This document shows positions 28,057-63,300 of a DNA stretch of 64,000 nt, in pieces. This DNA is from a bacterium. GTDB lineage: Bacteria; Patescibacteriota; Microgenomatia; UBA1406; GWC2-37-13. How positions within the stretch are numbered: the first letter of the stretch is position 1; the number at the start of each line of letters is the position of its first letter. Below the pieces are notes generated by a model. That model was not told the origin of the DNA, did no database searches, and was given only the letters and a program-made list of their open reading frames with translations. Both the position numbers and the translations under genes were made by a program. Location of the stretch: contig JAUSJK010000048.1 of the NCBI GenBank assembly GCA_030647255.1, positions 32,540-96,539 of the forward strand, written 5' to 3'.

Positions 28057-28132
28057 TGGGGAGTGGTGTAACGGTAACACGCCAGACTTTGGATCTGCGC
28101 GACTCAAGGTTCGAATCCTTGCTCCCCAGCCA
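28057..28132 (+). tRNA. tRNA-Gln (anticodon UUG), CCA encoded
   Basis: TGGGGAG TG GTGT AACGGTA ACAC G CCAGA CTTTGGA TCTGC ... CAAGG TTCGAAT CCTTG CTCCCCA G CCA. The acceptor, D and T arms are clean. The anticodon stem has a C:C mismatch or the variable loop is 6 nt, so tRNAscan confirmation is needed. Confidence 0.75.
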
Positions 28133-38211: not shown

Positions 38212-39186
38212 CTATACGATTACTTTTTTCAGTTCTTCGATAGTGAGACGTTTTTCAGACTGTAGTGTACGTATTTGTTTTACCCGATGAATCATATCTT
38301 GATGATAGAGTTGATATCCTCCTGGAGAATACTTTTTTACTCGCAATAAACCTTCATTTGTCCAGAACCGAATTGTCGGAACAGTCTCTTCGGTCATTTT
38401 GGCCAATTCTCCAATTTTAAGCAGTGCATCTGACTTCTCGATTATTTCTTTCGGTTCGAGTGACTCGAGATAGATTAACACCGATCTTTCGACAGCCAAG
38501 AACATGAGAGGAATGTAATCTGAAAGATCGCCGGATAGTTGTCCCTTTTCAATACTATTAATATAGACTTTCCTATCTTCTTTGCGGATTATTGCGGGTG
38601 GATAGCCTGCCTGCATAAGGATCAAGTTCATAAGTAAGCGCGCTGTTCTTCCGTTTCCGTCGGTAAAGGGATGAATGCTCACAAATGTATAGTGAGCGCG
38701 TAATGCCACATCTATGATATCGTTATTGGTGTTATGAAGCCAATCGATCAATTCCTTCATCAAGTCAGGCACTTTCAGGGCATTGGGCATAACTACGGAA
38801 GAGCCGGCAATGCGGACGGGCACATTCCTATATCGTCCTGCATTTGTCGTGTCAATATCTCGCAAGATGAGAGAGTGAATATCTCTGATAGTACGCTCTG
38901 TAATATTCTTTTTCGTCTTATTTTTGAGAGACATAATATAGTCCCAGGCTTTTGCGTGATTGATAGCTTCGAGGTGTTCAACTATGGATTTTCCTTCTAC
39001 AGTGATGCCTTTTTCGACAACAAGCGCCGTCTCCTGCCGTGAGAGTGTATTACCCTCAATTGCATTAGACGTATAGGTGAGTTCCACCTTATACCATTCG
39101 TCCAGATTTTTTATAATCTCTTTAGGAAATGGCCGGTGAGCGTCGAGCCGTTTTTTTAATTCATGGAGCCGAGACAGTGTTACCAT
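38212..39186 (-). CDS. Fic-domain protein (class II, self-inhibited) fused to a C-terminal MerR-type HTH
   Basis: Inhibitory motif TSNAIEGN ((S/T)xxxE(G/N)). Fic motif HPFTDGNGRTARLL. C-terminus LKIGELAKMTEETVPTIRFWTNEGLL...GGYQLY (MerR HTH). Confidence 0.8.
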   Translation of the reverse strand: MVTLSRLHELKKRLDAHRPFPKEIIKNLDEWYKVELTYTSNAIEGNTLSRQETALVVEKGITVEGKSIVEHLEAINHAKAWDYIMSLKNKTKKNITERTIRDIHSLILRDIDTTNAGRYRNVPVRIAGSSVVMPNALKVPDLMKELIDWLHNTNNDIIDVALRAHYTFVSIHPFTDGNGRTARLLMNLILMQAGYPPAIIRKEDRKVYINSIEKGQLSGDLSDYIPLMFLAVERSVLIYLESLEPKEIIEKSDALLKIGELAKMTEETVPTIRFWTNEGLLRVKKYSPGGYQLYHQDMIHRVKQIRTLQSEKRLTIEELKKVIV

Positions 39187-39252
39187 GGCTAAAGTATAAA
39201 GTAATACTTTATGGTTGTCAAGTGGTAATTCACATTCTTAAAATTAGCCTGC

Positions 39253-39404
39253 GTCAATTGAAAACCCCAGCCCTTTCCAGTAACCTATTGGTATTAAAAG
39301 AAAACCATTTTATCAATCATATGGAAACAACAAAAATTGCTTTATTCAAAGGAAGAAAAATACGAAAAACTCTCTATCAAGACGAATGGTGGTTTTCTGT
39401 AATA
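39253..39404 (+). repeat. direct repeat R1: duplicated upstream region plus first 28 codons of the Bro-N gene
   Basis: About 95% identical to 41898-42048, including ATGGAAACAACAAAAATTGCTTTATTCAAAGGAAG. Homology ends at ...TTCTGTAATA. Confidence 0.9.
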
Positions 39405-39460
39405 CAGTTGACGTCTCTCTTGCTAATATCAACAAAATAGCATATAATGTTGACATTACT

Positions 39461-40642
39461 ATGAACAATATCAACTCAGTACAAATAGGCAGGTATATCA
39501 AGCAAAAAGAAGGTTATGGAGCCTTCACGCCTTTTGATTTTCCTCCAAAAGATGGCTTAATGATGAGCCCAAAATTGTATAAAAAAAACGAGGAGGCAAT
39601 ACGATTAGTCGGTAAACTCGATGGCATCACGAGACTCTTGCCGGACAAGAACTTTTTCCTCAAGATGTTTATAAAAAAAGATGCCGCTTATTCTAGTCAG
39701 ATTGAAGGCACGAAGGCAACTTTACAAGACGCAGTAGCGGCGCCAGTTACCGAAGAAAAATCTCGGCTCCCCGCTGACGTTGACGACATTAATCATTATG
39801 TCAACGCGGTAAATTATGGCATCGAAAGAACCAAGACCTTGCCGATTTCTCTGAGACTCATAAGAGAAATACATGAGCGACTGATGACCGGTGCACGTTC
39901 GACACAGCATGCATACCCAGGCGAGTTTCGACATTCCCAGAATTGGATAGGAGGCAGGGCTCCTACAGATGCTTCTTTCGTACCTCCTGCCCCGCATGAT
40001 ATGTATAAATCATTAGATGATCTGGAAAAATTTATCCATGCAATAGATGACTATCCATCGTTGGTAAAAGTTGGATTGATCCATGCGCAGTTTGAAACTA
40101 TTCACCCGTTTACTGACGGTAATGGTCGAACAGGACGAATGTTGATAGTCATGTATATTCACCACGCCGGACTTTTAGAAATACCGGTATTGTACTTATC
40201 AAGCTATTTTAAAAAGTATCAAAAACTCTATTATCAAAAATTACAAAGTTATCATGATGCGAATGCCCAGGTTGATGCTTGGCTGGAGTTCTTTTTGGAA
40301 GGCGTAGCAGAAATTGCAGATGCTTCAATCGAAATTTGTACTAAGATAACTGCACTACGAGACTTAGATTTTGCCAAAATGCAAAAACTTGGCAAAAAAT
40401 CGGCTGAGTCCACTTTGGAAATAATCCGTAAACTATTTGGTCAGCCAATTGTCGGCGTTGCGGAGATAATGAAGTGGACGGGTTTTAGTCCACAGGGTGC
40501 ATATAATGTGATCAAGCGACTTGAGAATTTAAAAATCCTTGAACCTCTTGGTGATGCTGTTTATGGGCAGAAATATATTTACGCTGACTACTATGAAATA
40601 TTTGACGATGGATTTAGAGAAGCAAGGGCGAAGAAAAAATAA
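39461..40642 (+). CDS. Fic family protein (Fic_N + Fic + C-terminal wHTH architecture)
   Basis: SSQIEG inhibitory motif and HPFTDGNGRTGRML. The ATG at 39461 is used because the tracked longer ORF starts inside the repeat scar. Confidence 0.8.
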   Translation: MNNINSVQIGRYIKQKEGYGAFTPFDFPPKDGLMMSPKLYKKNEEAIRLVGKLDGITRLLPDKNFFLKMFIKKDAAYSSQIEGTKATLQDAVAAPVTEEKSRLPADVDDINHYVNAVNYGIERTKTLPISLRLIREIHERLMTGARSTQHAYPGEFRHSQNWIGGRAPTDASFVPPAPHDMYKSLDDLEKFIHAIDDYPSLVKVGLIHAQFETIHPFTDGNGRTGRMLIVMYIHHAGLLEIPVLYLSSYFKKYQKLYYQKLQSYHDANAQVDAWLEFFLEGVAEIADASIEICTKITALRDLDFAKMQKLGKKSAESTLEIIRKLFGQPIVGVAEIMKWTGFSPQGAYNVIKRLENLKILEPLGDAVYGQKYIYADYYEIFDDGFREARAKKK

Positions 40643-40727
40643 ACTATGGCAACTTTTCAAAATAGCTTTAAATTGCTATTACTCAGATGCGGTCTTTATT
40701 GGACAGCAGTAGTGTGAAGTGGAAAAG
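40628..40727 (+). repeat. direct repeat T1 (shared 3' module)
   Basis: GCGAAGAAAAAATAAACTATGGCAACTTTTCAAAATAGCTTTAAATTGCTAT... recurs at 41745-41838. It begins in the last codons (AKKK*) of the Fic gene. Confidence 0.85.
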
Positions 40728-40750
40728 TAACTAATGTATAAATCAAAAAT

Positions 40751-41749
40751 ATGAAAAACTTACAACTTCAATCACAAATAATTATCTATAAAACAGAAAC
40801 AGGCGAGACCAAAATTGACGTGCGGTTTGATGGAGACACGGTCTGGTTGAGTCAGGATGAAATGGCTCGACTCTTTGATAAAGGCCGTTCAACTATTGCA
40901 GAACATATTGTTAAAGTATTTAAGGAAAAAGAACTAGTAGAGGGATCAGTATGTCGGGAATTCCGACGTACTGGCGCTGACGGAAAAGAATATCAGGTAC
41001 AATACTACAATCTCGATGTTATTATCTCCGTTGGTTACCGAGTCAAATCACTCCGTGGTACTCAATTTCGCATTTGGGCAACCAAGCATCTGCGCGAATA
41101 TATCGTCAAAGGTTTTGTGATGGATGATGAACGACTGAAAAACCCCGATTTGCCATTTGATTATTTTGAAGAACTCACTCGTCGTATTGCGGACATTCGT
41201 ACTTCAGAAAAAAGATTTTATAGAAAAATTACTGATATTTATGCTACCAGTGTTGATTACGATCCTACAGACGAGAAGAGTATTCTCTTTTTCAAAACGG
41301 TCCAAAATAAAGTGCATTATGCAATTACCGGAAATACTGCGGCGGAGATAATTGCCAGTAGAGTAGATAGTAAAAAACCAAATGTAGGTCTCACAAACTT
41401 TAGGGGTAGCAAGCCAACAAAAGAAGAATTGGTGATCGCCAAAAATTATTTAAGTGAGCAGGAACTTCTCATTTTAAATAATCTTGTCGAGCAGTATCTC
41501 GTATTTGCCGAAGGACAGGCCATGCAGAGGGTGCCAATGTATATGAAGGACTGGATAGATAAACTCCACGCATTTTTACAGATTAACAATAAAAATATTT
41601 TGAAAGATGCAGGTAAAATTTCCCATGAGTTGGCGGTAGAAAAAGCGGAAAAGAATTTTGATGAATATAAAAAAAGCGAAGCAAAAAAATTGGACAATGA
41701 TTTTGATTCGGCAGCCTTGCGTGCGCTGAAAATAGCGAAGAAAAAATAA
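40751..41749 (+). CDS. RhuM-family protein
   Basis: IIYKTETGETKIDVRFDGDTVWLSQDEMARLFDKGRSTIAEHI...YNLDVIISVGYRVKS is the characteristic RhuM N-terminus. Confidence 0.8.
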   Translation: MKNLQLQSQIIIYKTETGETKIDVRFDGDTVWLSQDEMARLFDKGRSTIAEHIVKVFKEKELVEGSVCREFRRTGADGKEYQVQYYNLDVIISVGYRVKSLRGTQFRIWATKHLREYIVKGFVMDDERLKNPDLPFDYFEELTRRIADIRTSEKRFYRKITDIYATSVDYDPTDEKSILFFKTVQNKVHYAITGNTAAEIIASRVDSKKPNVGLTNFRGSKPTKEELVIAKNYLSEQELLILNNLVEQYLVFAEGQAMQRVPMYMKDWIDKLHAFLQINNKNILKDAGKISHELAVEKAEKNFDEYKKSEAKKLDNDFDSAALRALKIAKKK

Positions 41750-41838
41750 ACTATGGCAACTTTTCAAAATAGCTTTAAATTGCTATAGTTCAGATGCTGT
41801 CGTTATTGGATAGTAGCAGTTTAAGGAAATTGAAAAGC
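41745..41838 (+). repeat. direct repeat T2 (shared 3' module)
   Basis: Second copy of the T module. It begins in the last codons (AKKK*) of RhuM. Confidence 0.85.
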
Positions 41839-41897
41839 TGAAAAATTAATTTGATCTCCACTTACCTTACCTCCGATTCTATACTTTTTTAACCAGA

Positions 41898-42048
41898 GTC
41901 AATTGAAAACCCCAGCCCTTTCCAGTAACCTATTGGTATTAAAGAAAACCATTTTATCACTCATATGGAAACAACAAAAATTGCTTTATTCAAAGGAAGA
42001 AAAATCAGAAAAACTCTCTATCAAGATGCATGGTGGTTTTCTGTAATA
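41898..42048 (+). repeat. direct repeat R2 (intact copy, continuous with the Bro-N gene)
   Basis: See R1. A third partial copy, TTGAAAACCCCAGCCTTTTCTAGTAACCTATCGTATT, lies at 42810-42846. Confidence 0.9.
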
Positions 42049-42795
42049 GATGTAATTGAAGTCCTTACCGATAGTTTAAATTCCAACGATTACTGGTATA
42101 GAATGAAAATCCGTGTGAAGGATGAAGATAAAACTGAGTTATCGACAATTTGTCGACAACTGAAATTGGAATCTGCTGACGGAAAGAGATATGAAACCGA
42201 TTGTGCCGATACTGAAGGTATCTTTCGGATTATTCAATCTATTCCTTCTCCTAAGGCAGAGCCATTCAAACGCTGGCTTGCCAAAGTGGGTTATGAAAGA
42301 GTTCAGGAAATAGAAAATCCTGAACTAGCAACTAAACGCACGCGAACATTGTACAAACTTAAAGGTTATAGTGATGATTGGATAGAAAAACGAATGAGAG
42401 GCATCGCTATTCGAGAAGAACTCACTGACGAGTGGAAAAATCGTGGAGCCAGAGATGATAAAGATTATGAGATTTTGACAGCTGAAATTTCCAAGGCAAC
42501 TTTTGATGTGACTCCAAGTGAATATAAAAAAATTAAAGGCCTGAAGAGGGAAAACTTACGCGATCATATGGATGACTTTGAACTTATTTTTAACATGCTT
42601 AGTGAACGTGCCACAACCGAAATTCATCGTACTGAGGACTCAAAGGGTGTAACAAAACTCCGAAGCGATGCAAAAGCCGGAGGCGATATCGCAGGTGGGG
42701 CTAGAAAAAAGTTGGAAAAACGGCTTGGCCGTTCTGTAGTATCAGAGAAGAATTTTCTCAATAAGAAGGAAGATAACAAACAATTGAACAAATAA
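41965..42795 (+). CDS. Bro-N domain protein (prophage antirepressor-like)
   Basis: ALFKGRKIRKTLYQDAWWFSVIDVIEVLTDS...GIFRIIQSIPSPKAEPFKRWLAKVG has the Bro-N pattern. Confidence 0.75.
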   Translation: METTKIALFKGRKIRKTLYQDAWWFSVIDVIEVLTDSLNSNDYWYRMKIRVKDEDKTELSTICRQLKLESADGKRYETDCADTEGIFRIIQSIPSPKAEPFKRWLAKVGYERVQEIENPELATKRTRTLYKLKGYSDDWIEKRMRGIAIREELTDEWKNRGARDDKDYEILTAEISKATFDVTPSEYKKIKGLKRENLRDHMDDFELIFNMLSERATTEIHRTEDSKGVTKLRSDAKAGGDIAGGARKKLEKRLGRSVVSEKNFLNKKEDNKQLNK

Positions 42796-42846: not shown

Positions 42847-43006
42847 CATTGGCAAGTTTAACTAGAAAAATTTCTTAGTAGTCTCCTGAAGCTGAAATGT
42901 CTATACTACTTATGAATACCTATGAAGCAAATCTATTGCAATTTATGAAATTAAAGACTATACTGCTCTGTATTGTAACAAAATAATAATACTTTAGATT
43001 AATACT

Positions 43007-44689
43007 ATGGATATCACTAAAATGACTTTTGGAAAAACATCTGAATATCTTACGATAGGCGAGGTTTCTAAGTTATTTCATATCCATCAAGATACTCTTA
43101 GGAACTGGGAGAAAAGTGGCGAATTAGTTCCTCTGCGAGTTGGCCCACGTAAGGATCGCAAATATCGTAAGCAAGACATAGAAACAATTATTGCCAAAAT
43201 GGGAAGTAAGCTCACGCTGGCTCAACTCGAACAGTTTCTATGGAAAAGTGCCGACATATTGCGAGGCAAAATTGACAGCTCTGACTATAAAAAATATATC
43301 TTCGGGTTACTTTTTTACAAAAGAATTAGTGACGTTTGGGATGAAGAATACAAAAAAGTCATTGATGAATATAAAGACAAGACACTCGCTGAAGCTGAAT
43401 ATAACCACAGATTCCAAGTGCCAAAAGACTGCAAATGGGAAGTTATTACCCAGACATCAGAGAACATCGGCCAGAAACTCAATGATATTTTTGACAAAAT
43501 TACAAACGTAAATAGTCCAAAGCTGGATAAGATTTTTAATGATCTGGATTTTGCCAATAAGGATAGATTCCCCAATGAAACCATTCAAAGACTAGTAAAT
43601 CACTTCTCTCAATATAACTTTGGCAGTAATTACATCAGTTCTGATCTCTTGGGTGACGCTTACGAGTATTTAATCAAGCAATTTGCTGCAGATGCAGGGA
43701 AAAAAGGCGGCGAATTCTACACTCCACGAGAAGTTGAGCGAATCATCATAGGAATTGTTAAGCCTCATCAAAAAGACCATGTTTACGACCCGACAGTAGG
43801 TTCAGGAGGATTTCTTCTTGAAGCATATAACTACCTTAAAAATAGGTCGAATGAGCAAGTTGCACGAACACTTTACTTTTATGGACAGGAAATCAATATC
43901 AGTACCTTTGCTATTGCCAAAATCAACATGTTTTTACATGGACTGGATAGTTCAGATATAAGGCGTGGTGACACCCTGGCAAATCCGCAGTTCCTCAATA
44001 ATATGGGAAATTTACAAACTTTTGACATCGTGGTCGCTAACCCTCCGTATTCCATAAAAGATTGGGAGTTTGAACTATTCAAAAGCGACAAATATGGTCG
44101 TACCCAAGAGTATGAACTCCCTCCACAGAAAAACGCTGACTATGCTTTTGTACTCCACATACTTAAGTCATTGAACGTAAATGGTCGTGCTGGCATTGTG
44201 TTGCCTCATGGAGTCCTATTTAGAGGCGGTAGCGAAGGCCGAATCCGAGAACAGATTATCAAAAATGATCTTTTGGAAGCGGTTATTGGGCTTCCACCTA
44301 AACTTTTTTATGGAACTGGTATTCCAGCAGCAATTCTTATTTTCAATCGAAACAAAGCAGAAAACAAAAAAGGGAAAGTATTACTTATTGATGCGGAGCG
44401 TGATTTTCTTGAAGGAAAAAACCAAAATACTCTCAGAAAGCAGGATATAGACAAAATTATTAAGACTTACGATCAATATCAAGATGTCGAAAAGTACGCC
44501 AGAGTTGTTGATGTAAAAGAAATCGAAGAAAACGAATATAACCTCAATGTGAGGCGATACATTGATAGTAACGAAGAACAAGTTCAAATTGACGTAAAAC
44601 AAGTCTGGAAGGAACTACAAAATTTGGAAAAAGACAGAGAAGAAATCAACAAAAAAGTAGCAGATTTTATAAACGAGTTAGGATACTAG
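43007..44689 (+). CDS. hsdM: Type I R-M N6-adenine DNA methyltransferase subunit with an N-terminal MerR/excisionase-type HTH
   Basis: N-terminus LTIGEVSKLFHIHQDTLRNWEKSGELVPLRVGPRKDRKY (HTH). HsdM_N (LEQFLWKSADILRG). Motif I DPTVGSGGFL. Motif IV VANPPYS. Confidence 0.9.
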   Translation: MDITKMTFGKTSEYLTIGEVSKLFHIHQDTLRNWEKSGELVPLRVGPRKDRKYRKQDIETIIAKMGSKLTLAQLEQFLWKSADILRGKIDSSDYKKYIFGLLFYKRISDVWDEEYKKVIDEYKDKTLAEAEYNHRFQVPKDCKWEVITQTSENIGQKLNDIFDKITNVNSPKLDKIFNDLDFANKDRFPNETIQRLVNHFSQYNFGSNYISSDLLGDAYEYLIKQFAADAGKKGGEFYTPREVERIIIGIVKPHQKDHVYDPTVGSGGFLLEAYNYLKNRSNEQVARTLYFYGQEINISTFAIAKINMFLHGLDSSDIRRGDTLANPQFLNNMGNLQTFDIVVANPPYSIKDWEFELFKSDKYGRTQEYELPPQKNADYAFVLHILKSLNVNGRAGIVLPHGVLFRGGSEGRIREQIIKNDLLEAVIGLPPKLFYGTGIPAAILIFNRNKAENKKGKVLLIDAERDFLEGKNQNTLRKQDIDKIIKTYDQYQDVEKYARVVDVKEIEENEYNLNVRRYIDSNEEQVQIDVKQVWKELQNLEKDREEINKKVADFINELGY

Positions 44690-44690
44690 T

Positions 44691-45329
44691 ATGATATACA
44701 TCTTTCTGGACGAAAGCGGAGATCTTGGATTTAATCCATCAAAAAAGAATTCAAAATATTTCGTTATAACCGTTTTGGCAACAGAGGATAAGCGAAAGGT
44801 TGAAAAAGTAATAAAGAAAATTCATAGTTCTTTACGAAAAAAAACCAAGAAACTTTCCGGTGGCATACTTCACTGTTACAAAGAAAAACCTGCAACGAGG
44901 CATAAACTTCTCCAGAAACTTTCAGGTTTAAATATTCATATAATGACGATATATCTACATAAGGTAAAAGTATTCACGCATTTGCAAGACGAAAAGCATG
45001 TGTTATATAACTACGTTACAAATATTCTTCTGGACAGAATCATGTCGAAGAAACTGATCAATGTCGTAGCCAATGTTCACTTAATCGCGGCTAAGAGAGA
45101 AACTAATAAATTTTTAAATGATAATTTCTCCAACTATCTTAAGACCCAAGCTCGCGATAATCACAAAATACGGTTAGATATTGTGATCAGAACTCCATCA
45201 GAGGAAAAAGGAATACAAGCTGTAGACTTTGTGAGCTGGTCAGTATTTCGTAAGTATGAGCACGGAGACGCAGAATATTACAAAGAAATTAAAAATAAAA
45301 TTGTAGAGGAGAACGGACTGTTTAAATAG
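44691..45329 (+). CDS. DUF3800-family protein embedded in the Type I R-M operon
   Basis: The N-terminal IYIFLDESGDLGF is the DUF3800 hallmark. The ATG lies 1 nt after the hsdM stop. Confidence 0.65.
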   Translation: MIYIFLDESGDLGFNPSKKNSKYFVITVLATEDKRKVEKVIKKIHSSLRKKTKKLSGGILHCYKEKPATRHKLLQKLSGLNIHIMTIYLHKVKVFTHLQDEKHVLYNYVTNILLDRIMSKKLINVVANVHLIAAKRETNKFLNDNFSNYLKTQARDNHKIRLDIVIRTPSEEKGIQAVDFVSWSVFRKYEHGDAEYYKEIKNKIVEENGLFK

Positions 45330-45441
45330 CACAAAACCCTAGTCGCTATTTATGAGGAACCATCCGGAACCCCACGGCTAGGGAATTACTTGTAAACCAA
45401 TTATATAACAAGCGGTTGATATAAGTCAATTAAAAAATCAT

Positions 45442-46590
45442 ATGAAAAATAAAAATAATTGGACAGCATCAACAATCGGAGAATTATTTGAAGTTACCAA
45501 TGGAAAAACGAATACTGATGAAGCAGTTCTAAATGGTAAATATCCGCTGTTTGATCGTTCAATAGAAATAAAATATAGCGATAAGTTTCTGTTCGATACG
45601 GAGGCGGTTATCTTGCCGGGTGAGGGAAAAGATTTTATTCCACGATATTATATTGGGAAATTCGACCTACATCAACGGGCTTATGCAATCTTTCCAAAGA
45701 GCAAAATAGACCTGAGTCTAAAATTCTTATATTACTGGATGCTTTATAAAAGTCAGTACTTAACTAAAATGGCAGTTGGCTCAACAGTAAAGTCACTCAG
45801 ACTTTATATGTTAAAGAATTTTCCATTAGAGTTTCCCGATCATAAATCACAGGAGAAAATTACTAATTTCTTTGAATTGATTGACAAGAAACTCGCTAAG
45901 GCAGATCAGATTATTCAAAAGACTGAAACTTTGAAGCAGGGCTTAATGCTAGAATTACTCACGAAAGGACTCGGTCATAAAAAGTTTAAGAAAACAAAAA
46001 TTGGAGAAATTCCTGATGAATGGGAAGTAATGAGTGTGGGACAAATTTGTGATTGTATTGTTCCAGGGAGAAATAAACCTAAAATTTTTAATGGAGACAT
46101 TCCATGGATTACGATACCCAACATACAGGATTCAAGGATTCAATACAATGAAGCTACAAAATATGTTTCAAGACAAGAACTCAAAAATTGTGGAAATAAA
46201 ATAATACCAGCAAATTCAGTAATCATGTCATGTGTTGGTGATTTTGGTATCGTAGCTGTAACTGATAGGGAAATCGCCATTAATCAGCAATTACATGCTT
46301 TCTTGCCTTCAAGTAAATTAGATCAGAACTTTCTTAAATTTTCATTGATATTGCAAAAAGATTTCATGGAAAATTTGGCAACTAAAACTTCTGTACCTTA
46401 TCTGAATAAGACTAGCTGTAATTCTATTCCTATTGCTAAACCTTCTCTTGAGGAACAACGAAAAATAGGAACTATTTTGTTCTCCATAGATCATAAAATA
46501 TTAATTGAGAAAATGAATAAAGAAAAACTACAAATTCTTAAAAAAGGCCTCATGCAAGATATTTTTAGTCAGAAAGTTAAAATAAATTAA
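45442..46590 (+). CDS. hsdS: Type I R-M specificity subunit
   Basis: Two target-recognition halves are separated by the conserved helices TETLKQGLMLELLTKG and LQILKKGLMQDIFS. Confidence 0.85.
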   Translation: MKNKNNWTASTIGELFEVTNGKTNTDEAVLNGKYPLFDRSIEIKYSDKFLFDTEAVILPGEGKDFIPRYYIGKFDLHQRAYAIFPKSKIDLSLKFLYYWMLYKSQYLTKMAVGSTVKSLRLYMLKNFPLEFPDHKSQEKITNFFELIDKKLAKADQIIQKTETLKQGLMLELLTKGLGHKKFKKTKIGEIPDEWEVMSVGQICDCIVPGRNKPKIFNGDIPWITIPNIQDSRIQYNEATKYVSRQELKNCGNKIIPANSVIMSCVGDFGIVAVTDREIAINQQLHAFLPSSKLDQNFLKFSLILQKDFMENLATKTSVPYLNKTSCNSIPIAKPSLEEQRKIGTILFSIDHKILIEKMNKEKLQILKKGLMQDIFSQKVKIN

Positions 46591-46591
46591 T

Positions 46592-47239
46592 ATGAAACAT
46601 ACATGGAACGATGATCAAATTAGAGATTATCTAATAAATCATATTAAAAAATCAATAATAGATGATGTAGGTGGAGCATTGATAGGATGGTCAAGTCAGA
46701 TGCATAATAAAAAATACATAGCTGGATCTTTTGCCGTGCCACGAATGTTATTCCCAGAGATTGATGGTTTAGGCTCTTATATAACTGGTAATCCTAAATC
46801 TACCGGTTCGAATATAAAAACTTACATCTCAAACATTTTGGGAGAATCTAATCACAAATATAAAGAATTCGCAGGATTTATTGTTTTTATTTTCAGACAT
46901 GGGCTACTTCATCAACATCAACCAAAGGAATTTACACATAACAACAAGCAAATTGGTTGGGAGTTTCGAATTAGTGATCCAAATAATCCCATTGAAGTTA
47001 ACGAAAAATACCATTTAGAATTTAAAAGTGATGTATTAACAATAGATGCTAACATCTTTTATAGAGATATTGTCAATTCCGTTGAGGGTTTCGCAGAAGA
47101 TGTTATTACAAAATATAGAAGTACATTTGAAACTTCTCTTGATGCACAAATGAAATCTCTTACTAAAGAATCCTTGCTTAAAGAGGTGAAGTATTTGGAA
47201 GATACAGATTTTACATTTCTAGAAACCTATGAAATTTAA
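46592..47239 (+). CDS. uncharacterised 215-aa protein between hsdS and hsdR; candidate HEPN-like (RHGLLH = Rx4H)
   Basis: ATG 1 nt after the hsdS stop, and an 11-nt overlap with hsdR. No family was recognised. The only catalytic-looking motif is FIFRHGLLHQHQP (aa 100-112). Confidence 0.5.
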   Translation: MKHTWNDDQIRDYLINHIKKSIIDDVGGALIGWSSQMHNKKYIAGSFAVPRMLFPEIDGLGSYITGNPKSTGSNIKTYISNILGESNHKYKEFAGFIVFIFRHGLLHQHQPKEFTHNNKQIGWEFRISDPNNPIEVNEKYHLEFKSDVLTIDANIFYRDIVNSVEGFAEDVITKYRSTFETSLDAQMKSLTKESLLKEVKYLEDTDFTFLETYEI

Positions 47240-50189
47240 CGAACAATATACAGTCGAAAAACATGTCGTTAAATTCTTATCCCAAAACTTGGGTTATGAG
47301 TATATTACTCCTGAAGATTTTGCTGGTTTGAGAAGTCTGGAAAATGAATACCTGATAGTTTCTCATCTTATAGAAGCTGTAAAACGAATAAATAACATTA
47401 CAGATGATACTGAAATCCAAAGTGTTATCCGGGAAATAAGGAAAATTGATACAAATGAGGGCTTCTTAAAACTCCTGCGTAATGGCGTAAACCTGAAAGA
47501 TTCAGAAACAGGCAAAATGCGTGATTACATGATCGTGGGCTACGATAACCTCGAAAACAATCAATTTGTAGTCACAAATCAATTCTACTTTGAAGGCAAT
47601 CTGGAAAATATACGATCTGATATTTTGGTTTTCCTTAACGGTATTCCTGTCGTTGATATTGAGGCAAAAAGTCCCACCGCATCCACCAGTGTTAGTTATG
47701 AAAATGCGATTGGTCAAATAATACGTTACCAGCGAGTCGCTATGAAGCTATTCTGGCCTAACTGTTTTAATATTGCGACAGATGGCTTAAAAACTGTCTA
47801 TGCTACTACTTACGCACCAGAACAGTACTTCTTGCAATGGAGAGATCCCTCCTTCGCTAAAGCTTCGGCGGGCAAGGAAGATTTGGAGTCTGATACAGGA
47901 TTGGAATTGACGCTTACTTCTTTATTAGATAAAAGTAGACTCTTAGATATTATTAAAAATTTCATTGTCTTTGAACAGACAAAAGACGGTCGCATTAAAA
48001 AGATGGCTCGTTACCAACAACTTCGTGCCACAAATAAAATCGTCGAACGAGTGAAAAAGGGAGAGAAGAAACGAGGCTTAATTTGGCACACGCAGGGATC
48101 GGGAAAATCTCTAACAATGTTTTTTACCGCATGGAAGCTCAGGTTTGACGAGTCTCTCAAGAATCCAAAAGTATTTGTTCTTGTTGATCGAATCGACCTA
48201 GACAATCAGATTTATGATTCATTTATCAATGCAGGTGGTAAAAACGTAATTAGAGTTACCTCCCAGCGTGATCTTGCGAAGAAAATTACCAATGATGAAA
48301 GAGGAATCTTTATCTCTACTATCGAGAAATTTAATGAACTTCCACTACATCTTGAGAATCCTCATGAAAATATCATCATTCTTTCTGATGAGGCTCACAG
48401 GTCGAACGAGGGTGTTGCTGGAATTAAACTACGAGATTCGATGGGAAAGGCTTTCTTCTTCGGATTTACAGGTACACCAATTGATAAAACGACTCTTAAT
48501 ACTCACCGAAACTTTGGTGAAGAAGGAGAACGCTATCTTGACTACTACTCCATTCAACAAGCCATTGATGACGGAGCAACCTTACCAGTAACATATGAGG
48601 CTCGTCTTTCCAAATTCTTTATTGATGAAGAAAAAATTGACCAGCAATTTGATGAGATGACCACCGATTTATCAGATGAGCAAAAACAATTAGTCATGCG
48701 ACGCTATGGCAAGAAAGAAGCGCTTATAAAACTTGATAAACGCATGAGAGCTGTAGCTCAAGATATTGTAGATCACTACCGACTTTACATTGAGCCGAAT
48801 GGCTTTAAAGCTCAAGTCGTTTGCTATGACCGAGAAGCGACTGCCAAATTCAAACAATTATTCAACGATCTTATTCCAGCCGAATGGACAGAAGTGGTGT
48901 ATTCATCTGGTGATCCTAATACTGACTCGGAGAGCTTGAGAAAATATAATACCAGCAAAGCTCAAAGAGAAAAAATTATTGATAAGTTCAAAGACCCGAA
49001 AACTCCTCTTAAATTATTGTTAGTCTGCGATATGCTTTTAACTGGATTTGATGCCCAAATTGAACAAGCGATGTACCTGGATAAGCCTTTGCGAGATCAC
49101 AATTTATTGCAAGCGATTGCTCGGACAAACAGAGTTTATCCAAATAAGGGATGCGGAAAGATAATTGACTACTATGGAATCACAAGAAACCTCTACGAGG
49201 CTTTGAATTTCGATGAAAGTATTATCGACTCAGCACTTATTGATCTTGACCACTTGAAAAAGGAGTTTTTGGAAGTTTTAGGTGAAATAAAAGATATTTT
49301 TACTGGTATCAATCAAGAAGACCCATCTATTGAAAACTTGAGGAGATGCTTAAAAATATTCATTGATAACGAAGGCAAACAGCGATACTTCACAGATAAG
49401 TATTCCAGATTAAAGCTATTATTTGAAGTTTTGTCACCTGACCCATTCCTTGCTGATTACATTCGAACATTCAAATGGACTACCAGTGTCTATATTGCTT
49501 TCCTCAATGATTTCCGTCAAGAAAATTTTGCAATGGAGGCTTTCCGAAGCGGTGACATTCCAACCTTCGGGGAGTATGGTGAAAGAGTTAAAAAATTGAT
49601 TCAAGAACAAATCGACTATGAAGGAATTACTAAAAACTTCAGAGAGTTAAAAATAAACGATATTTATACTCTTGAACGACTCGACAAGATGGATGATGAA
49701 GAAAAAGCACTCAACTTAGAAAAGATGCTTAAACAAGAGATTTCTATAAACATTGATACAAACCCTGTATTTCAAAAGTTTAGTGAGAGATTAACAGCTA
49801 TTCGTAAAGAATTTGAACAGCACCAGATTGATCTTTCTGAACGAATCAAACGTTATTATGACTTAATGAACGATATTAAAAATAAATATGATGAAGCAAA
49901 GGAGTTAGGACTTAATTTGCAGGAATATGGATTATTTGTCATTTCTCAAGAGTTTTTACCCAAAACAGACCAGCCAATTCTGTTGAGTTTGTCTAAAGAC
50001 CTTTCAAAGAGATTGCAGGCTATTCTTGATGAGGGCTGGCAGTATTCATCTAAGCGTGAAGAATTTCTTAAAGGTGTAAAACAGACTATCCAAGAGTTGA
50101 TTTTGAAGGAATACAAAAAGAAACTACAAGTTAAAGATTTCCCTAAATTTTTAAACAGACTCGTTGACATTGTAATCAAGAAGTTCTAA
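47229..50189 (+). CDS. hsdR: Type I restriction enzyme R subunit
   Basis: N-terminal PD-(D/E)XK region (DILVFLNGIPVVDIEAK), Walker A HTQGSGKSLTM, DEAH box LSDEAHRS, motif VI QAIARTNR, 986 aa. Confidence 0.9.
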   Translation: MKFNEQYTVEKHVVKFLSQNLGYEYITPEDFAGLRSLENEYLIVSHLIEAVKRINNITDDTEIQSVIREIRKIDTNEGFLKLLRNGVNLKDSETGKMRDYMIVGYDNLENNQFVVTNQFYFEGNLENIRSDILVFLNGIPVVDIEAKSPTASTSVSYENAIGQIIRYQRVAMKLFWPNCFNIATDGLKTVYATTYAPEQYFLQWRDPSFAKASAGKEDLESDTGLELTLTSLLDKSRLLDIIKNFIVFEQTKDGRIKKMARYQQLRATNKIVERVKKGEKKRGLIWHTQGSGKSLTMFFTAWKLRFDESLKNPKVFVLVDRIDLDNQIYDSFINAGGKNVIRVTSQRDLAKKITNDERGIFISTIEKFNELPLHLENPHENIIILSDEAHRSNEGVAGIKLRDSMGKAFFFGFTGTPIDKTTLNTHRNFGEEGERYLDYYSIQQAIDDGATLPVTYEARLSKFFIDEEKIDQQFDEMTTDLSDEQKQLVMRRYGKKEALIKLDKRMRAVAQDIVDHYRLYIEPNGFKAQVVCYDREATAKFKQLFNDLIPAEWTEVVYSSGDPNTDSESLRKYNTSKAQREKIIDKFKDPKTPLKLLLVCDMLLTGFDAQIEQAMYLDKPLRDHNLLQAIARTNRVYPNKGCGKIIDYYGITRNLYEALNFDESIIDSALIDLDHLKKEFLEVLGEIKDIFTGINQEDPSIENLRRCLKIFIDNEGKQRYFTDKYSRLKLLFEVLSPDPFLADYIRTFKWTTSVYIAFLNDFRQENFAMEAFRSGDIPTFGEYGERVKKLIQEQIDYEGITKNFRELKINDIYTLERLDKMDDEEKALNLEKMLKQEISINIDTNPVFQKFSERLTAIRKEFEQHQIDLSERIKRYYDLMNDIKNKYDEAKELGLNLQEYGLFVISQEFLPKTDQPILLSLSKDLSKRLQAILDEGWQYSSKREEFLKGVKQTIQELILKEYKKKLQVKDFPKFLNRLVDIVIKKF

Positions 50190-50761
50190 TGAAAAAACAG
50201 ATTAACCTGCACAATCGAGTCGTAAACTACTCTATCCGTAGAAGTAAAAGAGCCAAGCGGATGAGGCTAGCTGTTTATTGTGACGGTAACTTCATTGTTA
50301 CTGTTCCCCAAACTTTCCCCACAAATTCAATTGATAGATACGTTATCGCTAAATCGCAGTGGGTCATCTCTAAGCTCAATTTTTTTGAAGGACTTAACAA
50401 AAAGCAGAAATTAACTTTTGGAGATAATGGATACGAGAAGTATAAGGAAAAAGCATTAGAAATGATTATCAAAAGACTGACAGCTCTTAATAAAACGCAT
50501 TATCAGTTCAAATTCAATAAATTAACAATCAGGAATCAAAAAACTCGTTGGGGAAGCTGCTCTAAGAAACGAAACCTTAACTTTAACTATAAAATATTAT
50601 TCCTGCATCCAAAGATAAGAGACTATATTATGATTCACGAACTATGTCATCTGAAAGAATTTAACCACTCGAAGAAATATTGGTCATTGGTAGAGAAAGC
50701 TCTTCCAAATTTTAAGAATGTCCAAGAGGAACTGAAAGTACACGGAATATTGTTAGGATGA
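50189..50761 (+). CDS. DUF45/YgjP-like (M48/SprT-like) zinc metallopeptidase
   Basis: KTRWGSCS...IMIHELCHLKEFNHSKKYW contains an HExxH motif. The start overlaps the hsdR stop (TAATG). Confidence 0.8.
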   Translation: MKKQINLHNRVVNYSIRRSKRAKRMRLAVYCDGNFIVTVPQTFPTNSIDRYVIAKSQWVISKLNFFEGLNKKQKLTFGDNGYEKYKEKALEMIIKRLTALNKTHYQFKFNKLTIRNQKTRWGSCSKKRNLNFNYKILFLHPKIRDYIMIHELCHLKEFNHSKKYWSLVEKALPNFKNVQEELKVHGILLG

Positions 50762-50791: not shown

Positions 50792-51547
50792 ATGTCAAAA
50801 TACTACAACCCCAACCGGAAAAAGTATCTTTATGACTCTTTATCCAAAGAGACATTTAGATTGAGTCGGTCGAAGATAGACCTATTTCTTAATTGCCCCC
50901 GCTGTTTTTATCTTGATCGTAAACTTGGTGTCGCTCAACCGCCTGGGTATCCTTTTTCTCTCAACTCTGCTGTCGATAAACTCCTTAAAAAAGAATTTGA
51001 TATTCACCGGGCAAATGAAACGGCGCACCCGTTGATGAGAGCCTATGGGATTGATGCGATACCTTTGCGTCATGAAAAAATTGACGAGTGGCGAGATGCA
51101 TTGAGGCGGGGAATTACGTATACGATCGCTGAGGAACATGTCGTGATCACAGGGGGAGTTGATGATGTGTGGGTCAATCCAAAAGGGGAGTTTTACATTG
51201 TGGATTACAAGGCGACTTCAAAAGAGGAAGAAGTGACTCTTGATGCCGACTGGCAGATCGGATACAAAAGGCAGATGGAGATATATCAATGGTTATTTCG
51301 TCAAAATGGATATACGGTTTCCTCGACGGGATATTTTGTCTACTGTAACGGGAACACGGACAAAGAAGCATTTGACGGAAAGCTCGAATTTAACATCAAG
51401 ATTATTCCATATGTCGGGGACGATGGGTGGGTTGAAAAAACTATTCTTTCTGCGATTGAATGTCTAAAAGGCGATCATATTCCTGAAATGGGCGCAGACT
51501 GTGATTATTGTAAGTACCGTGAAGCAGTCCGTCAGTTTGAAAAATGA
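50792..51547 (+). CDS. PD-(D/E)XK nuclease with Cas4/AddB-like Cys cluster
   Basis: N-terminal CPRCFY, core GGVDDVW...YIVDYKAT (D...D-x-K) and C-terminal C-x12-CDYC. Confidence 0.65.
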   Translation: MSKYYNPNRKKYLYDSLSKETFRLSRSKIDLFLNCPRCFYLDRKLGVAQPPGYPFSLNSAVDKLLKKEFDIHRANETAHPLMRAYGIDAIPLRHEKIDEWRDALRRGITYTIAEEHVVITGGVDDVWVNPKGEFYIVDYKATSKEEEVTLDADWQIGYKRQMEIYQWLFRQNGYTVSSTGYFVYCNGNTDKEAFDGKLEFNIKIIPYVGDDGWVEKTILSAIECLKGDHIPEMGADCDYCKYREAVRQFEK

Positions 51548-51586
51548 TATCTTTACTTTCGTCCATCTTTCGTCTATAATGTGTCT

Positions 51587-52621
51587 ATGTTTGAGCCTAA
51601 ATATACCATTACAGGGAAACTGCTGGAGAATATAAAACGTGTCAATCGACTCGTGAATGATCTTAACCAAAGACGGTTTTCTGATGTGGTTTTGGTTGAG
51701 CTCCAAAAGACTGCCGAGGCGACCTCGGCATTTGCTTCAACGAGTATCGAAGGCAATCCTTTGCCGTTGACCGACGTCAAACAGATATTGAAAACAAGAC
51801 CGCACAATTTGCGGGAAAGCGAGCAGGAAGTCGTCAACTACAACGAAGCCCTGCAGGAAATCAACACAGATTTAAAAAGAGGAAAGATCTCATTTAACAT
51901 TTCCCTGGTTTTGTCCATCCAAAGAAAAGTAATCAATACCATTTTTCCTCCGTTTCAATCCGGAAAACTGCGGACTCAACCGGTATTTGTAAATGACCCT
52001 CGTCTGCAGAAAACTGTCTACTGGCCTCCCGACGTGCAGGACGTACCCGGACTTATGGAAGACCTCATTGAATTTGTGCAAAAAAATAAACATATCATTG
52101 ATTCTTTGATACTTGCGGGCATTTTTCATAAGCAAATGGTGATTATTCATCCGTTTATGGATGGAAACGGAAGGGCATCTCGTCTTTTGACAAAGATTCT
52201 TCTAGCGGAAATGGGGCTGAATACATTTAATCTTTTCAGCTTTGAAAATTATTACAATAATAATGTCACTAGGTATTTTGAAATGGTTGGAGAGAGGGGC
52301 AATTATTACGATATTGAAAAAACAATAGATTTTACATTTTGGCTTGAGTATTTTACCGATGGCATAATTGATGAATTACTGCGGGTAGAGAAACTACTTC
52401 CACACGTCTTAATAAGTCCTCAGACGGAGCTTAAGTCATATCACCAAAAAATGTTACTTCATATCAGACAAAAAGGGTATATTACCGATCGTGAGTATGC
52501 AAAACTCGTTTTCCGTGCACGATCTACCCGTCATCTTGATTTTAAAAAACTAATCAGTCTTGGATTAATCGAAATGAAAGGTGAAAGTAAAGCAGCGCAC
52601 TATGTAGTAAAAGAAAAATAA
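51587..52621 (+). CDS. Fic family protein (third in window)
   Basis: STSIEGN inhibitory motif and HPFMDGNGRASRLL. The ATG at 51587 lies just after a TATAAT (51575-80). Confidence 0.8.
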   Translation: MFEPKYTITGKLLENIKRVNRLVNDLNQRRFSDVVLVELQKTAEATSAFASTSIEGNPLPLTDVKQILKTRPHNLRESEQEVVNYNEALQEINTDLKRGKISFNISLVLSIQRKVINTIFPPFQSGKLRTQPVFVNDPRLQKTVYWPPDVQDVPGLMEDLIEFVQKNKHIIDSLILAGIFHKQMVIIHPFMDGNGRASRLLTKILLAEMGLNTFNLFSFENYYNNNVTRYFEMVGERGNYYDIEKTIDFTFWLEYFTDGIIDELLRVEKLLPHVLISPQTELKSYHQKMLLHIRQKGYITDREYAKLVFRARSTRHLDFKKLISLGLIEMKGESKAAHYVVKEK

Positions 52622-52629
52622 GATTGGGA

Positions 52630-53058
52630 TCACCAGCCAACTTCGGAATAAAACTTCTTCAGCGTGTGGTTTTGAATCGCCGTTTTGATGTAGGGGATAG
52701 TATTTGTTGGCAAATTATCAATAGGAAACCATTGTAGATCGTCACATTTTTCGGGTTCGGTATTACTCGGTTCTTTGTCCCATTTCTCAACGAAAAAGAA
52801 AAAATCGAGCCGTATATCCTCCTTTTTTCTGTGCATGACATGAGCGAGTGTAATATCTTCTTGTTTTAAATCGATACCGATCTCTTCTTTTATTTCCCGG
52901 CAGAATGCCGACGTGAGAGGTTCATTATTTTCTACGTGTCCGGCGGGGAGTCCATAGTTTCCATCCTCATATCCCGTATTTTGTCTTCTCAAAAGAAGAA
53001 TCTTATTGTTTCTTATGAAAAATCCGTATACAGACGCAATCATCTTAAATCTCTCCAT
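52630..53058 (-). CDS. NUDIX hydrolase
   Basis: Nudix box GHVENNEPLTSAFCREIKEEIG. Confidence 0.8.
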   Translation of the reverse strand: MERFKMIASVYGFFIRNNKILLLRRQNTGYEDGNYGLPAGHVENNEPLTSAFCREIKEEIGIDLKQEDITLAHVMHRKKEDIRLDFFFFVEKWDKEPSNTEPEKCDDLQWFPIDNLPTNTIPYIKTAIQNHTLKKFYSEVGW

Positions 53059-53812: not shown

Positions 53813-54997
53813 TCACTTAACTTTCAGAATGGCTTGAGAGATGGTTTCGGCGAGGTTGGGAGTGAAGACATCGGGAATAATATTCGTAGCGGTGGGTTTT
53901 TTGATCATATTGGCAAGTGCGTCTGCGGCGGCTATCTTCATTTCTTGCGTAATAACTTTGAGCCTTCCTTTGATAACAGCTCGGAAAATACCAGGGAAAG
54001 CAAGAACATTATTTATTTGATTAGGTAGATCACTGCGTCCACTCGCGACTACTTTCGCATCGGCATCTAGCGCGTCTTGGGGCATAATCTCGGGTGAAGG
54101 GTTGGCCATAGCAAACACAATCGCGTCCTTGGCCAGACTACTGACCATATCTTTGGTAATAATATTTGGCCCCGATAATCCAATAAGAACATCAGCTCCT
54201 TTTACCACATATTGCAATGTTCCTATCTTTCTATTTTTATTTGAAACGCCGGCAATAGCTTGTTTGTAAATATTTTGATGTTCGCGGCCCGAATAAAGTG
54301 CTCCATTTTTATCAACGACAATTACATCTCCGACGGCGGAGTGTCCGGGCATACGGTAACACACGTCGGCGGAACAGTTGAGACCCAGCAACATACGTGT
54401 TGTGGCCAGACCAGCTGCGCCTGCTCCAACAACAACAACTTTTAAAGAATCATAAGGTTTGTTGACGACTTTGGTGGCGTTGCGTAAAGCCGCTGAGATG
54501 ACAATGGCGGTGCCGTGTTGGTCATCATGAAATACGGGGATGCCGATATTCTGAAGCGCCTCTTCTATTTGAAAACAGCGGGGAGCTGATATGTCTTCGA
54601 GATTTATTCCGGCAAAAGAAGGAGCGATATAGGTGACAAATTTGATTATCTCGGCCGGATCTTGAGTATTCATCACAATCGGTACACTATCAACGCCGCC
54701 AAATTCTTTGAGCAAAAGTGATTTGCCTTCCATTACGGGAATTGCCGCCTCGGGGCCAATATTCCCGAGCCCAAGTACTGCCGAACCGTCGGAGATAACG
54801 GCGACCGTTCTATCTCTCCAGGTAAGATCATAAGAAAGCGATTTATTTTTGGCAATTTCTCGACTCGGTTGGGCGACGCCGGGAGTATAAAAAAGAGACA
54901 AATCATGTTTATTTTTAAGAGGAGTAGTGGGTTCAATCTTTATTTTACCCTGGTATTTTTTATGAAGCTTTAACGCCTCATCGTATATGTCGTTCAC
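53813..54997 (-). CDS. NAD(P)-dependent malic enzyme (short form)
   Basis: LSLFYTPGVA, GINLEDI, FHDDQHGTA and VVVGAGAAG. Confidence 0.9.
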   Translation of the reverse strand: MNDIYDEALKLHKKYQGKIKIEPTTPLKNKHDLSLFYTPGVAQPSREIAKNKSLSYDLTWRDRTVAVISDGSAVLGLGNIGPEAAIPVMEGKSLLLKEFGGVDSVPIVMNTQDPAEIIKFVTYIAPSFAGINLEDISAPRCFQIEEALQNIGIPVFHDDQHGTAIVISAALRNATKVVNKPYDSLKVVVVGAGAAGLATTRMLLGLNCSADVCYRMPGHSAVGDVIVVDKNGALYSGREHQNIYKQAIAGVSNKNRKIGTLQYVVKGADVLIGLSGPNIITKDMVSSLAKDAIVFAMANPSPEIMPQDALDADAKVVASGRSDLPNQINNVLAFPGIFRAVIKGRLKVITQEMKIAAADALANMIKKPTATNIIPDVFTPNLAETISQAILKVK

Positions 54998-63176: not shown

Positions 63177-63300
63177 TGCCCCGGCTACGACCTACTTTCC
63201 CCTACTCCGCTTTGGAGCGAGTATCATCGGCGCTGACTCGTTTCACGACCTTGTTCGGGATGGGAAAGGGTGGTACCAAGTCGCTCAAGTAACCAGGGCA
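63177..63300 (-). rRNA. rrf: 5S ribosomal RNA
   Basis: The minus strand reads TGCCCTGGTTAC...CCCATCCCGAACAAGGTCGTGAAACGAGTCAGCGCCGATGATACTCG...GAGTAGGGGAAAGTAGGTCGTAGCCGGGGCA. It has the conserved CCGAAC / AGCGCCGATGATA / AGTAGG blocks and a pairing terminal helix. Confidence 0.9.

Follow-up and report, generated by a model that had tools for sequence, protein, structure and literature searches.

The paradigm of a latent second-line effector guarded by a restriction-modification (R-M) complex is the prr locus, in which the anticodon nuclease PrrC is embedded in the type I R-M system EcoprrI. That type I R-M loci can carry embedded immune genes is established ("guilt by embedding"), PrrC and DarTG being examples. 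In a study of 3,231 embedded families, PrrC was almost exclusively embedded in type I R-M, and genes embedded there in the same orientation were mostly defence genes (PDC/HEC; PADLOC-DB v2) (Payne et al. 2024). The enteropathogenic Escherichia coli (EPEC) RRDM island, with the order RptR-HsdM-HsdS-DarT-DarG-HsdR-M48, has been shown to protect against phage, and the site between hsdS and hsdR was called a recombination hot spot (NAR 2025, PMC12255303). Here we describe a type I R-M locus with three additional genes, DUF3800, orfX, and a YgjP-like gene, at positions 43007-50761 of a 64,000-nucleotide stretch (the window, to which all coordinates refer unless another locus is named) of contig JAUSJK010000048.1, from a bacterium of the Candidate Phyla Radiation (CPR; Patescibacteria). 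Sequence comparison indicates an intact type I R-M system of a clade present in CPR/Patescibacteria. Its layout is interesting but has precedents; the new items are the orfX family and a predicted structured small RNA (sRNA) gene lying between DUF3800 and hsdS.

The EPEC RRDM island resembles this locus in having a 5' helix-turn-helix (HTH) regulator, a foreign module between hsdS and hsdR, and an M48/SprT-type peptidase right after hsdR, but RptR is a separate protein there and DarTG2 fills the hsdS-hsdR site, whereas in the window the HTH is fused to HsdM and the site holds the single gene orfX. The HsdM HTH, which is of the MerR type, may correspond to the free-standing RptR repressor of the island, built here into the methyltransferase subunit. 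The window locus also differs from the island in having a second module (DUF3800 plus sRNA) between hsdM and hsdS, in its CPR host, and in being known from sequence alone. The prr locus likewise has one gene in the same orientation between hsdS and hsdR. A PrrC-type anticodon nuclease was rejected as an identity for orfX: the 215-amino acid protein has no ABC-ATPase, no Walker A motif (GxxxxGK[ST]), no Pfam ATPase domain, and no PADLOC match to PrrC, and the family, unlike PrrC, is also found outside type I loci. A Klebsiella IncFIB plasmid (NZ_CP016922) shares the five-gene layout (hsdM-hsdS-YecA-hsdR-SprT/M48), with a small gene before hsdR and a protease that overlaps the hsdR stop by 4 nt, but its embedded gene is of the YecA family and is unrelated to orfX.

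Organization of the Locus

The features of the locus, in order, are as follows.

43007-44689, + strand: hsdM with an N-terminal MerR-type HTH (amino acids 14-64); Pfam matches N6_Mtase, HsdM_N, and MerR_1; NPPY345
44691-45329, + strand: DUF3800 gene, RNase HII-like predicted nuclease; PF12686, E 1.1e-14; DESG7 and QAVD176
45332-45393, - strand: predicted structured sRNA gene of ~62 nt; covariation, strand asymmetry, promoter
45400-45429, - strand: predicted sRNA promoter, TTGACT-18-TATAAT; 11/12 consensus match
45442-46590, + strand: hsdS with two target-recognition domains; Methylase_S, E 6.1e-42, in two stretches
46592-47239, + strand: orfX, uncharacterized 215-amino acid family, hsdR-proximal; open reading frame, confident structure model, synteny
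47229-50189, + strand: hsdR; HSDR_N, SWI2_SNF2, T1R_D3-like, and T1RH-like_C; DEAH387
50189-50761, + strand: YgjP-like (DUF45; annotated SprT/M48) zinc metalloprotease; PF01863, E 6.9e-40; HELCH150

An earlier note on this DNA had recognized the three canonical subunits by motif, and Pfam supports this: HsdM matches N6_Mtase (1.3e-110), HsdM_N (4.9e-26), and MerR_1 (1.4e-9), with NPPY at 345; HsdS has its two Methylase_S stretches; and HsdR matches HSDR_N (8.2e-32), SWI2_SNF2 (5.5e-70), ResIII, T1R_D3-like, and T1RH-like_C, with DEAH at 387, each of the three being assignable to type I R-M by sequence. HsdM shares 77-88% identity with its counterparts in CPR relatives, which have the same HTH fusion, and HsdS is 49% identical to that of a Daviesbacteria locus. 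The MerR-type HTH (encoded at 43007-43200) recurs in loci L002, L005, L007, and L147 (L numbers denote individual loci), and a C-terminal MerR HTH is also borne by a divergently placed Fic protein in the window (38212-39186, - strand). Restriction would run canonically, with M2S methylating and R2M2S translocating and cutting. The candidate hsdM promoter (42936-42964, + strand; TTGCAA-17-TATACT, 9/12, ~43 nt before the ATG) is weak, promoter-like matches in the region being as numerous as expected from shuffled sequence.

The six open reading frames, all on the + strand, agree exactly with those of the earlier note, none of the three extra genes is spurious or disrupted, and direct reading confirms the junctions it gave. 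The hsdM stop (TAG, 44687-89) lies 1 nt from the DUF3800 start (ATG, 44691), and the hsdS stop (TAA, 46588-90) 1 nt from the orfX start (ATG, 46592); orfX overlaps hsdR by 11 nt (47229-47239), and the hsdR stop and the YgjP (DUF45) start share TAATG at 50187-91. It should be noted that tight gene spacing by itself is ordinary in operons; the signal above chance is the orfX-hsdR-YgjP synteny that is kept across related loci. Comparison of these loci points to a conserved core of MerR-HTH-HsdM, HsdS, orfX, HsdR, and the YgjP-like zinc protease, and because the occupants of the hsdM-hsdS and hsdS-orfX slots in relatives are mutually unrelated, orfX-hsdR(-YgjP) is regarded as the constant part and the other two junctions as probable cargo hot spots.

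The description of the locus as a single six-gene translationally coupled operon was not borne out. The gap between DUF3800 and hsdS is 112 nt long and contains the convergent sRNA gene with its predicted promoter, the -35 box of which ends 12 nt before the hsdS ATG. Because this DUF3800-sRNA module breaks the locus, it is not one coupled unit, and because the sRNA promoter lies between hsdM and hsdS, any read-through from one to the other must cross a convergent, near-consensus promoter. The locus splits into hsdM-DUF3800, the sRNA gene converging upon it, and hsdS-orfX-hsdR-YgjP(-Cas4-like). Transcription of the convergent sRNA would incidentally oppose read-through into hsdS.

The guard or abortive behaviour of the extra genes was an inference from gene position. 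In this explanation, all three are integrated effectors of one six-gene coupled system that are held latent by the Hsd complex and released when phage inhibit it, in the way that PrrC is with EcoprrI. The slots that they fill are known embedding sites of second-line modules, those of PrrC and DarTG2 (PMC12255303; Payne et al. 2024), the genes are tightly spaced in a common orientation, and the hsd linkage of orfX and YgjP is conserved, but the unit is interrupted by the convergent sRNA gene, and DUF3800 occurs mostly away from hsd genes with an RNA partner and promoter of its own. Overall, integration of all three extras into one guard system is considered quite improbable.

The orfX Family

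Five of the six proteins of the locus have a Pfam match, orfX being the exception; it has no match in Pfam, NCBIfam, PADLOC, or PHROG other than a spurious PADLOC match to Cas7 (E 0.005). None of orfX, DUF3800, and YgjP matches any of 5,027 PADLOC models, whereas the neighbouring RhuM, Bro-N, and Cas4-like proteins do. The AlphaFold2 (AF2) model of orfX has a mean predicted local distance difference test score (pLDDT) of 90 and a predicted template modelling score of 0.87, and a Foldseek search with it gave no significant fold match in the PDB (best E 0.76). An exact copy of orfX is annotated in a metagenome-assembled genome, and its relatives belong to Daviesbacteria and further Patescibacteria, which places the host in the CPR. 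The close homologs group into 22 clusters, and an exhaustive profile search (E<=1e-3) extends the family to at least 332 representatives, counted at 50% identity. In an alignment of 139 sequences, Tyr90, Arg102, His103, His107, His141, and Asp159 are near-invariant, and the close subfamily additionally keeps Arg51, Glu56, Asp58, Gln108, His109, and Lys112. Among the three extras, it is orfX that is new.

The segment R102-H-G-L-L-H107 satisfies the Rx4-6H motif of HEPN proteins, with a polar residue after the Arg, and R[HN]Gx2H is present in most of the 169 family proteins examined. Assignment to the HEPN nucleases was nonetheless rejected: no HEPN structure appears among the Foldseek PDB hits, no HEPN Pfam family matches across the 139 members, a PDB profile search was empty, and hhalign against a Hypoth_Ymh protein gave a probability of 0.3%. 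A phage origin was also rejected, with no PHROG match and no relatives in viral contigs; the one marginal BFVD match is to an uncharacterized Arthrobacter phage protein (E 0.036, template modelling (TM) score 0.44). In our interpretation, orfX is most likely an enzyme, in which a centre formed by R-H-x3-H, His141, and Asp159 would degrade nucleic acid.

Genomic context was examined at 17 distinct places, drawn from the close subfamily (A1). In eight of these (the window, L002, L005, L007, L015, L146, L147, and L148/L149), orfX lies within a type I hsd locus, and in six of the eight it is immediately upstream of hsdR; the other two are L005, where a 129-amino acid gene separates them, and L147, where the contig stops before hsdR. 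Among the HsdR proteins of these hsd loci is one of the EcoR124 type that is only 28% identical to the HindI-type HsdR of the window. Elsewhere, orfX sits between an HSDR_N/methyltransferase fusion and an S subunit (L018), follows an NgoFVII-type restriction endonuclease and Vsr (L014), or neighbours a Hypoth_Ymh HEPN protein (L012), a PHP-AAA_15 protein (L010), or a YgjP homolog (L019). The presence of orfX in several genomes without any Hsd partner, and its lack of PrrC-like ATPase or anticodon nuclease features and of a PADLOC match, are further points against an integrated guard system. We favour the alternative that orfX, which would be co-translated with HsdR, serves as a single-gene second-line effector that prefers the slot used by PrrC and DarTG but would be able to work elsewhere.

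The YgjP-like Protease

The YgjP-like protein has a strong match to PF01863 (6.9e-40; 137.7 bits versus a cut-off of 26) and an intact HExxH motif (HELCH150). In five related CPR loci (L002, L005, L007, L148, and L149), its gene directly follows hsdR, the two either overlapping by as much as 1 nt or lying up to 5 nt apart, and tblastn found relatives in 497 plasmid records. The homolog on the Klebsiella plasmid is 33% identical over 57% of the length, and homologs are annotated as SprT-family proteins. A YgjP-type protease at the hsdR stop is a widespread and already reported arrangement. It is proposed that YgjP would be an HsdR-coupled protease acting in the control or clearance of HsdR.

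The constancy of these neighbours also suits a different explanation, in which both orfX and YgjP are housekeeping accessories of HsdR that control its assembly or level (restriction alleviation) or clear HsdR stalled on DNA, in a manner like the proteolysis of DNA-protein crosslinks by SprT/Wss1. In its favour, type I enzymes do not turn over, and in E. coli HsdR is under proteolytic control by ClpXP. The start and stop overlaps with hsdR are kept across loci, orfX-hsdR is constant while adjacent slots vary, and YgjP has, besides its intact HExxH and the SprT annotation of its homologs, a weak match to WLM. However, orfX is also present in loci that have no hsdR, L146 has orfX-hsdR without YgjP, and the best plasmid match to YgjP (H1) is outside any R-M context. 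A housekeeping role for the pair is viewed as rather unlikely.

The DUF3800 Protein and the Convergent sRNA

DUF3800 is an RNase H2-like domain that is found as an accessory of type VII retrons and as a partner of Cas12a2, Cas12a3, and Cas13 (PMC7736814, PMC10910872, PMC13594972). Eleven structured RNA motifs, whose function has been unexplained since 2017, are associated with it (PMC5737381); these motifs, DUF3800-I to -XI, occur in either orientation, several with 3' terminators (Weinberg et al. 2017, PMC5737381). The 212-amino acid protein of the window matches PF12686 with 55.8 bits (1.1e-14; cut-off 21), and its DESG7 and QAVD176 motifs are invariant in 30 homologs. Foldseek aligns its AF2 model (pLDDT 87) with an RNase HII of archaeal origin (1eke; E 2e-5, probability 1.0, TM 0.57), one of eight RNase HII chains that match at E<=1e-3, and on the basis of this model the protein is a predicted RNase HII-like nuclease. 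The proteins linked to type VII retrons (reverse transcriptase plus DUF3800) and to Cas12a2/a3 or Cas13 share with it the RNase H2-like domain, the DE...QxxD residues, and a non-coding nucleic acid partner (PMC7736814, PMC10910872, PMC13594972, bioRxiv 10.64898/2026.08.25.746378); the window protein differs in standing alone, with no reverse transcriptase, tetratricopeptide repeat, or Cas partner, its partner being a small convergent sRNA.

The subfamily comprises more than 2,500 homolog clusters, the closest being 59-70% identical and from CPR metagenome-assembled genomes. Of four independent homologs examined on long contigs, none is in an hsd locus; they lie amid housekeeping or assorted defence genes, in some cases as duplicates, and a non-coding gap comes after every one of them. 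The linkage to hsd genes in other genomes by which the earlier note proposed to check its idea is thus found for orfX and YgjP and fails for DUF3800. Likewise, its view that the embedded effectors are not described is correct for orfX only, since DUF3800 and an M48 peptidase after hsdR have both been described.

A conserved element is common to the gaps after the four homologs and to the 112-nt gap of the window. A pattern scan of metagenomes found at least 120 instances. The element follows a DUF3800 gene in 93 of 125 instances, with the gene end ~35 nt upstream, and 11 are at contig edges; a -35/-10 pair (TTGACn-16/18-TATAAT) is present in 89 of 98 unique instances, and the conserved 5' sequence of the sRNA, CAAGUAA, mostly begins 7-9 nt past this promoter. 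The promoter in the window is the best promoter match within a 10-kb region. The predicted fold consists of a 9-bp outer helix, a 4-bp inner helix, and an invariant UUCCGGAUGGUU loop, and the 3' end, 3 nt from the DUF3800 stop, reads GGGUUUUG, a terminator-like U-run. In an alignment of 64 sequences, 99.3% of cells are paired, against 30-47% in slid controls, with seven covarying pairs and 93 double-change cells, compared with 21.9 in shuffles. A covariance model matches the window once (45313-45394, - strand; 85.4 bits, E 9e-19); it has no match in the other orfX/hsd loci, and the sRNA was not found in viral contigs.

No Rfam 15 family matches the sRNA, either in the window at the gathering score or in 44500-45600 at E<=10, the comparison covering the Rfam motifs DUF3800-I to -X; as a positive control, DUF3800-IX was recovered in L020. 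The sRNA is like these motifs in being a structured non-coding RNA that adjoins a DUF3800 gene, and DUF3800-IX in L020 is also on the opposite strand, but it differs from DUF3800-I to -X in sequence and structure. Covariation, strand asymmetry, a promoter, and a terminator-like end, the general marks of a structured sRNA gene, are all present, expression being predicted. Together they indicate that the gap harbours a previously unrecognized, predicted sRNA gene.

Instead of an RNA gene, the hairpin could be an intrinsic terminator, or an attenuator, acting on the transcript of hsdM and DUF3800, since a 9-bp stem lies right after the DUF3800 stop and the + strand has a fold z-score of -2.3. However, there is no U-run behind the stem on the + strand, the loop is near-invariant over the 64 sequences while the stem covaries, and 135 G-U pairs fit the minus strand only, on which 99.3% of cells are paired versus 85.7% on the + strand. 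The minus-strand -35/-10 pair is also conserved, and the full-length element occurs without DUF3800. A terminator is thus disfavoured and very improbable, and an sRNA gene is the interpretation adopted here.

Several further features of the family were observed. Some members (e.g. L053, L109, L099) have an optional GC-rich hairpin of 12-20 nt after the inner helix, a variable-length inserted stem of the kind typical of structured RNA families. In about 10 full-length instances without DUF3800, its place is taken by a tyrosine recombinase of ~348 amino acids (Phage_integrase, E 8e-33), ending ~58 nt from the loop and facing the sRNA 3' end (L039, L041, L059 (5307-6347), L061, L085, L088, L090, and L119). 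Genes for tRNA and tmRNA serve as attachment sites for mobile elements, and this geometry would be expected if mobile elements used the sRNA gene in that way; the flanks of the eight integrase-linked loci, which are short, showed no partial second copy. In L056 (2059-3495, - strand), L097, L101, and L030, the sRNA has a gene for an AbiEii-toxin plus WYL protein (E 2e-44) on one side and, on the other, a different hsdM (26% identical), again without DUF3800. L020, from Woesebacteria, has two paralogous DUF3800 genes 1.2 kb apart. The RNAs convergent with them differ, one being the Rfam DUF3800-IX motif and the other the new sRNA (4867-4935 and 6622-6703, both - strand), which suggests specific protein-RNA pairings.

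The DUF3800-sRNA Module as an Insertion

In relatives that have no insert, hsdM and hsdS overlap by 11 nt (GGATATGACAAATAA), and in the window the DUF3800-sRNA module, of ~750 bp, is located at exactly that point. The module lies near hsd genes in only ~8 of 75 instances with enough flank, and its slots in unrelated type I loci differ: it follows hsdM, with hsdS further on, in L138, follows hsdS in L074, and precedes hsdR in L124. Because the module fills varied slots of unrelated loci and is mostly outside hsd loci, DUF3800 and the sRNA constitute an autonomous, repeatedly embedded module rather than a component of the hsd system. They would form an independent protein-RNA nuclease module, either defence-like or toxin-antitoxin-like.

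Comparison with known toxin-antitoxin types gave a mixed result. A type III (ToxIN-like) system was rejected: the sRNA is present in one copy only, which is encoded downstream of DUF3800 on the other strand, instead of as a same-strand upstream repeat array. With respect to type I, the sRNA would be complementary to any DUF3800 3' untranslated region or read-through transcript, but the protein is a 212-amino acid, soluble RNase H-like protein and not a small hydrophobic toxin.

The 5-bp sequence TATGA is present at both ends of the insert (44689-44695 and 45437-45443) and occurs a single time where hsdM and hsdS overlap without interruption in relatives; it was rejected as a target-site duplication, being too short and too AT-rich. 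A malic-enzyme gene a few kb past the island (53813-54997, - strand) is also found right after the DUF3800-sRNA module in L022 (7523-8707, - strand), and this placement may reflect a variable region whose gene order related genomes have in common.

In another explanation, the extras have no functional tie to restriction and are selfish or passenger genes that exploit hsd recombination hot spots, DUF3800 and the sRNA among them as a pair of the addiction type. The cargo in the same slots is variable and mutually unrelated, the module is scattered beside housekeeping genes and sometimes duplicated, the sRNA adjoins tyrosine integrases, and the hsdS-hsdR site was called a recombination hot spot (PMC12255303). 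However, the position of orfX before hsdR is kept across two HsdR families and across phyla, the YgjP-hsdR overlap is kept from CPR to Enterobacteria, and neither orfX nor the sRNA was found in viral contigs. For the extras as a group, a passenger status is considered fairly improbable.

Surrounding Island

The run of closely spaced genes extends past 50761 into Cas4-like and Fic genes, and further defence-associated genes lie on both sides of the locus:

39386-42795, + strand: upstream genes Fic, RhuM (PDC-S05), and Bro-N (PDC-S13); Pfam, PADLOC
50792-51547, + strand: Cas4-like PD-(D/E)XK nuclease with CxxC...CxxC; PDDEXK_1, 9.4e-15; PADLOC Cas4, 1e-8
51552-51580: promoter-like site of the downstream Fic gene, TTTACT-17-TATAAT; 10/12
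51581-52621, + strand: downstream Fic gene; Fic, 6e-17

The Cas4-like gene starts 30 nt after YgjP and has a 55% identical homolog directly behind YgjP in L007; it is a probable further member of the unit. The flanks of the hsd locus (38212-42795 and 51581-53058) hold in all three Fic/DOC genes, RhuM, Bro-N, and a NUDIX gene, and RhuM and Fic also flank or interrupt hsd genes in L002, L015, and L023, a recurrent association. Just before the first Fic gene of the upstream run, and overlapping its start, a 37-amino acid segment (39321-39431) is 78% identical to the N terminus of Bro-N (41965), hinting at a remnant or duplication and at rearrangement in the island. Rfam identified a 5S rRNA (63179-63297, - strand) and two tRNAs (8802-8875, - strand; 28057-28129, + strand) in the window, which are unrelated to the locus.

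Implications

The account that best joins these observations is that of a canonical type I system combined with an orfX effector, an HsdR-coupled YgjP, and an independent DUF3800-sRNA module, and we lean modestly toward it being correct. Several points weigh against it. About 40% of the orfX contexts have no visible R-M gene, and in L016 defence genes are lacking altogether; no similarity between orfX and a nuclease was detected, HEPN being suggested by motif alone; and the four CPR hsd loci, with HsdR 77-89% identical, may represent a single ancestral linkage event. The sRNA promoter and terminator are predictions, and some copies of the sRNA adjoin a tyrosine integrase or an AbiEii-WYL gene and have no DUF3800, so that the partnership is not exclusive.

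A more ambitious interpretation of the same components is that orfX is a new enzyme family of unrecognized fold that acts as an HsdR-coupled second-line effector or controller, a non-homologous analogue of PrrC; that DUF3800 and the sRNA are a new immune or toxin-antitoxin module; and that the whole is a three-layer immune island in an ultra-small CPR bacterium. Taken in its entirety, this is doubtful. If the extras are passengers or housekeeping factors of HsdR, what is left is a type I system of the ordinary kind.

There is a growing view of type I R-M loci as scaffolds for embedded immune modules, and the window adds two uncatalogued components, orfX and the sRNA. The sRNA, with a predicted promoter of its own, forms together with DUF3800 a simple two-part system for probing the RNAs associated with DUF3800; if the proposed module is real, it would give a function to RNAs that have been unexplained since 2017. 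The locus also documents the organization of a defence island in the CPR/Patescibacteria, organisms with minimal genomes whose immunity is poorly studied.

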